The translations under genes were made by a program, and so were the position numbers. Below, piece by piece: positions 38,696 to 39,140 of a stretch of 47,028 nucleotides of DNA; within the stretch, counting starts at the first letter, position 1, and each line of letters opens with the position of its first letter. Source of the stretch: a virus (Duplodnaviria > Heunggongvirae > Uroviricota > Caudoviricetes); the IMG/VR virus record IMGVR_UViG_2778261425_000003; one strand, 5' to 3'. A model generated the notes under the pieces. The model saw only the letters and a list, made by a program, of their open reading frames with translations. It searched no databases and had not been told where the DNA came from.

Positions 38696-39079
38696 ATGAC
38701 ACGCAGAACTCAGTTCAAAGGCAATTCACGTTCTCGTCGTCGTGAGCGTTTAAAGGCAAAGGCATTAGCTAACGGCGTACTGGCCCGCGAAGAAGCAATA
38801 AGTTCAGAAGTATTACACCGCCCTACTCTAAGCAGAGCGCAGATTCAGGCTAAAGGTACTCACGAAACGCCTGAGCGCATAGAAGACGCTAAGCCAATTA
38901 AGTTCATGGCACAGGACGTGATCTGGCAACAGAAAGAATACAGACGCAATCTGGAGAGAGCGGCCATTGTGTACGCGAATGAGTTTGGGCATAGGCAACC
39001 AGAAACTGGTGTATGTCTTCCAAATGTAGCTCTTTACGCGGCAGGCTACAGGAAATCAAAACAACTGACAGCAAGGTGA
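38696..39079 (+). CDS. N: antiterminator N (P22 gene 24-like, arginine-rich motif)
   Basis: 127 aa; N-terminal ARM TRRTQFKGNSRSRRRERLKAKA; C-terminus ...VALYAAGYRKSKQLTAR resembles recalled P22 N; GGAGG RBS. Confidence 0.75.
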   Translation: MTRRTQFKGNSRSRRRERLKAKALANGVLAREEAISSEVLHRPTLSRAQIQAKGTHETPERIEDAKPIKFMAQDVIWQQKEYRRNLERAAIVYANEFGHRQPETGVCLPNVALYAAGYRKSKQLTAR

Positions 39080-39140
39080 CTTGTGTTGGTCGCCAGAAAA
39101 TAAAATTAGGCAGCAAACCACTTATTTGAGAGGAATTAAT

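Follow-up and report, generated by a model that had tools for sequence, protein, structure and literature searches.

The window, meaning the whole stretch of 47,028 nucleotides analysed here (IMG/VR virus record IMGVR_UViG_2778261425_000003, Caudoviricetes), carries lambda immunity and an intact N antiterminator gene, directly behind which lies an out-of-frame copy of the end of another N type. The features of this region are:

35805–35819, minus strand: candidate nutR boxB hairpin, TCGCTGACAAAGCGA, from a hairpin search downstream of cro
36159–36872, plus strand: cI repressor (lambda immunity), 235 of 237 amino acids identical to lambda cI
38419–38447, plus strand: pL promoter (TTGACA, 17-nt spacer, GATACT) within lambda-type oL operators, 10 of 12 matches in a promoter scan
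38464–38472, plus strand: putative nutL boxA, mapped from the 99.7% identical mEp234 record EF120460
38516–38530, plus strand: nutL boxB hairpin, GCGCTGACAAAGCGC, annotated in mEp234
38696–39079, plus strand: N antiterminator gene, 127 aa, HK97/H-19B/933W allele, from protein identity and Pfam PF25694
39014–39079, plus strand: P22-like C-terminal segment of N (...CLPNVALYAAGYRKSKQLTAR), common to otherwise different N alleles
39076–39080, plus strand: proposed recombination joint GTGAC, the N TGA lying inside microhomology of both putative parents
39076–39129, plus strand: phage 21-type N relic, the last 17 codons (VTCVGRQKIKLGSKPLI) and stop, 53/54 nt against phage 21 N
39130, no strand: right-hand mosaic boundary of the N module, where 95 BLAST segments from other loci end
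39141–39764, plus strand: Nmad5-family gene, the first pL-operon gene downstream of the relic (Pfam PF18757, E 3.7e-72)

The N gene, its nut sites and its neighbours

The N protein is 100% identical to those of HK97, mEp234 and HK106, 98.4% to that of 933W and 97.6% to that of H-19B, and is therefore not frameshifted relative to functional homologues. An earlier, sequence-only reading of this DNA had proposed an intact N ORF with an N-terminal arginine-rich motif and a C-terminus resembling that of P22 N. The ORF is present, the motif is RSRRRER at residues 12–18, and Pfam family PF25694 (N_peptide, P22-type) is matched along its full length, residues 2–127 aligning to positions 6–100 of 100 (E 1.7e-15; 57.8 bits against a cut-off of 27.9). 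In pairwise comparison with gp24 of the P22-like phage ST104, similarity is confined to residues 98–127, with 23/33 identical, which bears out the P22-like C-terminus. The label “P22-type N” holds for the family, although the allele is that of HK97, H-19B and 933W and not P22 gp24 itself. ST104 gp24 resembles the window N in its PF25694 match, its last ~30 residues and an identical nutL boxB, but it is 100 aa long and its first ~97 residues show no BLASTP similarity. The VT2-Sakai-type N is 41% identical overall to the HK97-type, yet the two alleles agree at ~95% over the final 66 nt of N and the relic. Position 39014, inside N, is a recurrent mosaic boundary, being the start of 21 BLAST segments from other loci. 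A search of solved structures gave no sequence relative of the window N.

The closest experimental counterpart is N of H-19B, a 127-aa protein that shows activity in both in vivo and in vitro assays and loses function when the same RSRRRER motif is mutated to alanines (PMC3526286). Loss of its residues 121–127 is without effect and loss of 101–127 impairs distal antitermination, the C-terminal domain (residues 101–120) being required for antitermination far from nut (PMC3526286). Taken with the ~98% identity, these deletion data argue that the window N is intact and that its own C-terminus is the functional RNA-polymerase-contacting end. By proxy of the 97.6% identical H-19B protein, the window N is probably a working Nus-dependent antiterminator. 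Its arginine-rich motif would recognise the P22-type boxB of both nut sites, and contact with RNA polymerase would be made by its own C-terminal residues, as the published H-19B work suggests.

The nut sites agree with the P22-like specificity that had been supposed. The 15-mer of the nutL boxB recurs unchanged in HK97 and 156 nt upstream of gene 24 in ST104. The candidate nutR boxB has the same loop, UGACAAA, its assignment to nutR following from position and loop identity. N is the first pL-operon gene behind nutL and has a matching candidate boxB on the pR side. In the mEp234 record, pL and oL1-3 are annotated at positions equivalent to those in the window.

Lambda immunity, also part of the earlier reading, is confirmed by the cI gene. 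Between cI and oL, at 37157–38202, two ORFs of 135 and 216 aa occupy the place where lambda has rexA and rexB; neither has a Pfam match. The longer has the length of HK97 gp48, HK97 carrying gp49 and gp48 in the matching stretch, and mEp234 has hicA, hicB and another gene between cI and oL. On the other side of N, a gap of 61 nt separates it from the Nmad5 gene, a name (for “nucleotide modification associated domain 5”) that PGAP assigns as well in an identical E. coli prophage. This gene is one of more than 20 different sequences found behind the N tail across phages. Further along the pL operon, an ORF at 40441–40968 has an HNH_3 endonuclease domain (PF13392, E 1.8e-15) and is homing-endonuclease-like; its AP2 domain match is sub-threshold (29.2 bits against a cut-off of 33.3).

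The stranded tail and its joint with N

The segment at 39076–39129 lies in the -1 frame relative to N and overlaps the N TGA at 39077–39079. In a search of 2.3 Gb of phage records, its match to the 3′ terminus of phage 21 N (OL657228) extends over 55 nt with 98.2% identity and is significant at the nucleotide level, with an E-value of 4e-18. Aligned in register, 53/54 nt are identical and the translated 54-mers agree at 17/17 amino acids. The comparison with lambda N gives 31/54 nt and 12/17 amino acids. The score against phage 21 was reached by 0/2000 shuffles, and the lambda match, while weaker, still exceeds every one of the 2000. The segment is thus homologous to the C-terminal ~17 residues of the 21 or lambda N protein, without being translated in frame as the end of an N. 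The out-of-frame tail placed at 39076–39131 by the earlier reading therefore stands, with its end corrected to 39129 (2 nt less), and its assignment to a lambda/21 type is right for the family and narrows to 21-type on the nucleotide identities (53/54 against 31/54). In other phages, this kind of tail is in working use: its 21/lambda-type form can be aligned to lambda N as seen in structure 6GOV of the antitermination complex, and phage 21 translates the segment in frame to finish a 99-aa N that has an arginine-rich motif of its own (PDB 1NYB). Upstream of the segment, phage 21 N is unrelated to the window N beyond weak family-level similarity. Since N ends at the TGA and no conserved start exists in the -1 frame, the window copy is classed as a relic and not as a functional member.

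Scans of the relic for promoters and terminators, a search of Rfam and an RNA folding test (fold z-score -0.03) found no promoter, terminator, Rfam match or unusual fold. It is absent from the annotation of HK97, mEp234, H-19B and the RefSeq records examined. In HK97 (AF069529), the genes flanking it are numbered 45 and 47 (N) and number 46 is missing; the unnumbered gap, 25976–26033, corresponds to window 39080–39137 and is exactly the relic, by coincidence or through a dropped ORF call. A full-text literature search, outside which key older papers lay, returned no description of the relic. The HK97/HK022 genome paper of Juhala et al. (2000) and the paper of Clark et al. (2001) on HK620 are both said to discuss mosaic joints of this region.

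The joint itself is sharp. Phage 21 reads ...GGTGTGACTTGTG and the window ...GCAAGGTGACTTGTG; downstream of 39076 there is 53/54 identity, and for the 80 nt upstream similarity to 21 or lambda does not rise above that of shuffles (p ~0.1). This is the abrupt boundary expected of a recombination scar. A deeper, frameshifted homology between P22-like and 21-like C-termini (YRKS versus YSKP) was considered and rejected on the shuffle-like behaviour of the same 80 nt. N genes with the same C-terminus and no relic end in AGGTAA (ST104, Oslo, HK620), in AGATGA (HK140), or in AGGTGA followed by TTGATG or CGATCC. The joint thus coincides with the N stop, where the parents have no more than 5 nt in common (GTGAC), a pattern suggestive of illegitimate or microhomology-mediated joining.

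On this evidence the segment is very probably a non-coding scar, left where a 21-type N end was joined behind an N with a P22-like C-terminus. An N of the latter kind, together with its own nutL, would have been fused to a 21-type N of which the final 17 codons and stop remain. Either parent could have been the recipient. Of the replacement proposed by the sequence-only reading, the out-of-frame relic behind an intact N is borne out. The relic would now be transcribed from pL within the 61-nt intercistronic spacer. Ribosomes stop at the TGA at 39077–39079, and its old frame would therefore go untranslated.

Distribution of the scar and of 21-type N tails

The junction between the N end and the relic can be read directly in H-19B and, by alignment, in HK97; BLAST coverage places it in mEp234, HK106, 933W, VT2-Sakai and many other Stx phages. 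It is also found, at 80% or more coverage of a 106-nt junction probe, in 627 of 5,426 complete E. coli genomes (~12%). HK97 (AF069529/NC_002167) is 99.6% identical to window 36939–39130 and the mEp234 record (EF120460) 99.7% identical to 38206–39130; both have lambda-type oL/pL, nutL, the same N and the scar. HK106 (JQ086369) has an identical N and the same scar. Behind the scar these relatives part: the window has Nmad5, HK97 gp45 and mEp234 a VT2-Sa p20-like gene. H-19B and 933W share the nutL-N block from the pL transcript start, with a scar like that of the window and different downstream genes. Their last N sense codon is AGA where the window has AGG, changing the first old-frame codon of the relic from V to M.

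The extent of these matches indicates what moves. From the pL start through the scar (~38453–39130), Stx phages of the 933W and H-19B kind are 98–99% identical to the window, their matches beginning at ~38453–38455, the pL transcript start. Most phage matches end at query position 691, which is 39130; alternative cassettes begin there, and behind the segment the sequence takes more than 20 different forms. The moving unit is therefore nutL-N-relic. As judged from the aligned sequences, the left junction near the pL start is a mosaic boundary separate from the scar, and the scar would form the 3′ end of a portable nutL-N module that has passed between many lambdoid phages.

Stx phages of the 933W and H-19B kinds have different immunity regions. 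Lambda immunity is paired with nutL-N-relic in HK97, mEp234 and HK106 as well as in the window, but the presence of the block in Stx phages of differing immunity indicates that this pairing is a later, independent reassortment. The proposal that the scar formed while lambda immunity was kept does not survive this comparison.

Scar-free relatives of the intact gene exist as well. They include P22-like ST104, where gene 24 ends in TAA and is directly followed by a convergent sieB with no 21-type relic, Salmonella phage Oslo (N 86.6% identical), HK620 and HK140. In an IMG/VR sample of 118 genes, picked by the P22-like C-terminal motif of N and hence independently of the relic, the relic is adjacent in 56, all with a TGA stop, and missing from 61, with one further match within 120 nt. 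These and the following counts are of loci, which include near-duplicate prophages, and not of independent events. Alignment scores in the sample are bimodal, at 7–14 or 38–54 of 54, with a single intermediate of 24 (L160). Among HK97-type N genes, 21 have the relic and 10 do not, and the relic is therefore dispensable for N. Scar-free copies could themselves descend from scar-bearing ones in which the sequence immediately behind the TGA was later replaced. Two variants were seen. In L160 the relic (VTCVGRQKQRGKSIPAYYD, then stop) follows right after the N stop and has a lambda-like 3′ half; in L142 (VSCTVHQKMKLGSKPLI) the N stop is TAA and the relic behind it is diverged in its 5′ third. Both variants hint at exchange with other N-tail alleles.

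A scan requiring 20 exact bases within the relic, and hence biased to intact copies, returned 120 loci; 114 sequences were classified, with the window, HK97 and phage 21 included. In 61 of these the segment is the in-frame end of an N, behind at least four N-terminal types: that of lambda (MDAQTRRRERR...), that of 21 (MVTIVWKESKG...), that of P22 (MTVIVYGKSTFAGNAKTRRHERRRK...) and a MTVVITY type (MTVVITYLADDNARNRRR...). A window-type relic of 17 codons, behind HK97-type or VT2-Sakai-type N, accounts for another 37. The remaining 16 have a longer relic of ~31 codons (...NRIYYRKPRSEMGVTCVGRQKMKLGSKPLI) behind other cassettes: a Nun-like gene and hairpin, N and a convergent sieB, N and a hkaQ-like gene, N and an 88-aa gene, or a 147-aa gene. 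Judged by eye, the long relics have at least three different left joints, which indicates that N replacement leaving a 21-type tail happened more than once.

In three of the loci with long relics (L008, L064, L097), a Nun-like gene (...HQRNPNKKWS) ~80 nt upstream of the scanned pattern is followed by a hairpin with a T-run and then by the relic. This cassette is mEp235-like (JQ182731, 25853–26151), and its scar is longer than that of the window and has a different left joint. In five others (L043, L062, L099, L045, L057), the ~31-codon relic comes only after one or two extra genes (sieB-like convergent, hkaQ-like, or an 88-aa Cys-rich ORF) that lie behind an intact N with a P22-like C-terminus. 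An HK022-like put RNA had been considered upstream of the long relic in L043, L062 and L099; these sequences gave no Rfam match and proved to be a sieB-related or other cassette behind an intact N.

Persistence and meaning of the stranded tail

If the tail is a scar, what keeps its copies so alike? Decay is almost nil: most copies are within three mismatches of the consensus and none has indels. The relic is ~98% identical to functional 21-type N ends, which makes it a possible homology patch for swapping flanking cassettes. The patterns of variation, taken from loci without dereplication, are in keeping with this. The major 54-nt haplotype is identical across the functional, 17-codon-relic and long-relic classes, common polymorphisms are found across all three, and among window-type relics all four combinations of G/A at site 1 with G/A at site 27 occur. 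The four commonest downstream cassettes are likewise each associated with all three classes. Haplotypes and cassettes together fit continuing homologous exchange through or around the patch. Near-identity of the relic copies may also stem from recent common ancestry, and the near-absence of decay would, taken alone, fit purifying selection on some function as well. In the old frame, synonymous to non-synonymous variant types number 4:10 among relics as against 4:6 among functional copies; this underpowered comparison does not separate the two (Fisher p = 0.67). That the stranded tails, of 54 and ~90 nt, are a linker kept near-identical by homologous exchange, and not passive fossils, is accordingly offered as a tentative idea that we consider somewhat unlikely.

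Selection on the 54 bases for a cis-acting role in the pL operon, independent of their old coding function, is less probable again. The role might be that of a translation-initiation or standby region for the next gene, an RNA processing site or a protein-binding site. Such a role would account for copies that are strikingly intact over many lineages and for relics of two lengths that keep one 3′ end. The next start codon lies 5–12 nt after the relic stop in the sampled loci, and a Shine-Dalgarno-like GAGG(TGA) directly follows or overlaps that stop in all three classes. However, this Shine-Dalgarno sequence and the start codon lie outside the relic, and relic-less N alleles directly adjoin other genes. 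Divergence of the 3′ half in L160 and of the 5′ third in L142 further indicates that no single fixed relic sequence is required, and the scans of the relic for structure, promoters, terminators and Rfam families that might carry such a function were all negative.

Expression of the tail, by programmed -1 frameshift or readthrough, would yield a second N isoform with a 21-type RNA-polymerase-binding C-terminus (...KTTDSKVTCVGRQKIKLGSKPLI). In its favour, other N proteins use the same segment as a working C-terminus, scar-bearing loci have 24–44 open codons in the -1 frame upstream of the tail, and a TCA AAA (A AAA) motif precedes the N stop by 8 codons in the window. This slip site is unconserved, though, being TCC AAA in H-19B and many other loci. 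Neither a slippery heptamer of the canonical X XXY YYZ form nor a stimulatory structure downstream was found (z = -0.03). Ribosomes reading through the TGA in the N frame would gain 7 codons before another stop, and not in the frame of the tail. The same N protein occurs without the tail in 10/31 sampled genes and the 127-aa H-19B protein is active in vitro (PMC3526286), all of which leaves an expressed tail very improbable. The stop 8 codons past that of N was also considered as a backup stop and rejected, ATG being the majority form in functional in-frame copies too; site 39100, with A in the window, G in HK97 and T in phage 21, is the one that creates TAA or TGA in the N frame.

A chance match, refuted by the E-value and the shuffles, or an independent small gene in the overlapping 38-codon ORF at 39013–39129 can be dismissed almost outright: this ORF does begin with ATG in the window, but the ATG is missing in Sakai-type and other loci (RLNLSS... 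or IQTTDSK... in that frame) and no ribosome-binding site precedes it.

The non-coding scar is a widely shared, old feature of the N module and an instance of the well-known lambdoid mosaic-joint phenomenon; the sequence block itself is already present in the well-studied phages HK97, H-19B and 933W. Two accounts of lambdoid mosaicism have been put forward, an illegitimate-recombination model (Hendrix, Juhala) and one invoking short conserved boundary sequences (Clark et al.) (PMC2327257). The joint behind N has the abrupt transition at a gene end, the little or no joint homology and the stranded gene fragment of known mosaic joints. Unlike the typical case, the fragment has hardly diverged from functional copies that circulate in the same phage population. 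Mosaic junctions also bound it on both sides, and it may therefore itself act as boundary homology.

The understanding of N function is unchanged by the scar. What the scar offers is a clean, datable-looking example of lambdoid phages swapping an essential regulator, and its occurrence in ~12% of complete E. coli genomes and in Stx phages makes the junction a convenient marker for N-module exchange. In the debate between illegitimate and boundary-homologous recombination, the first process appears here to have made the substrate for the second. If the stranded tails do serve as linkers, phages with lambda, 21, P22 or H-19B N, or with Nun, could swap the cassettes flanking them while leaving N unbroken.
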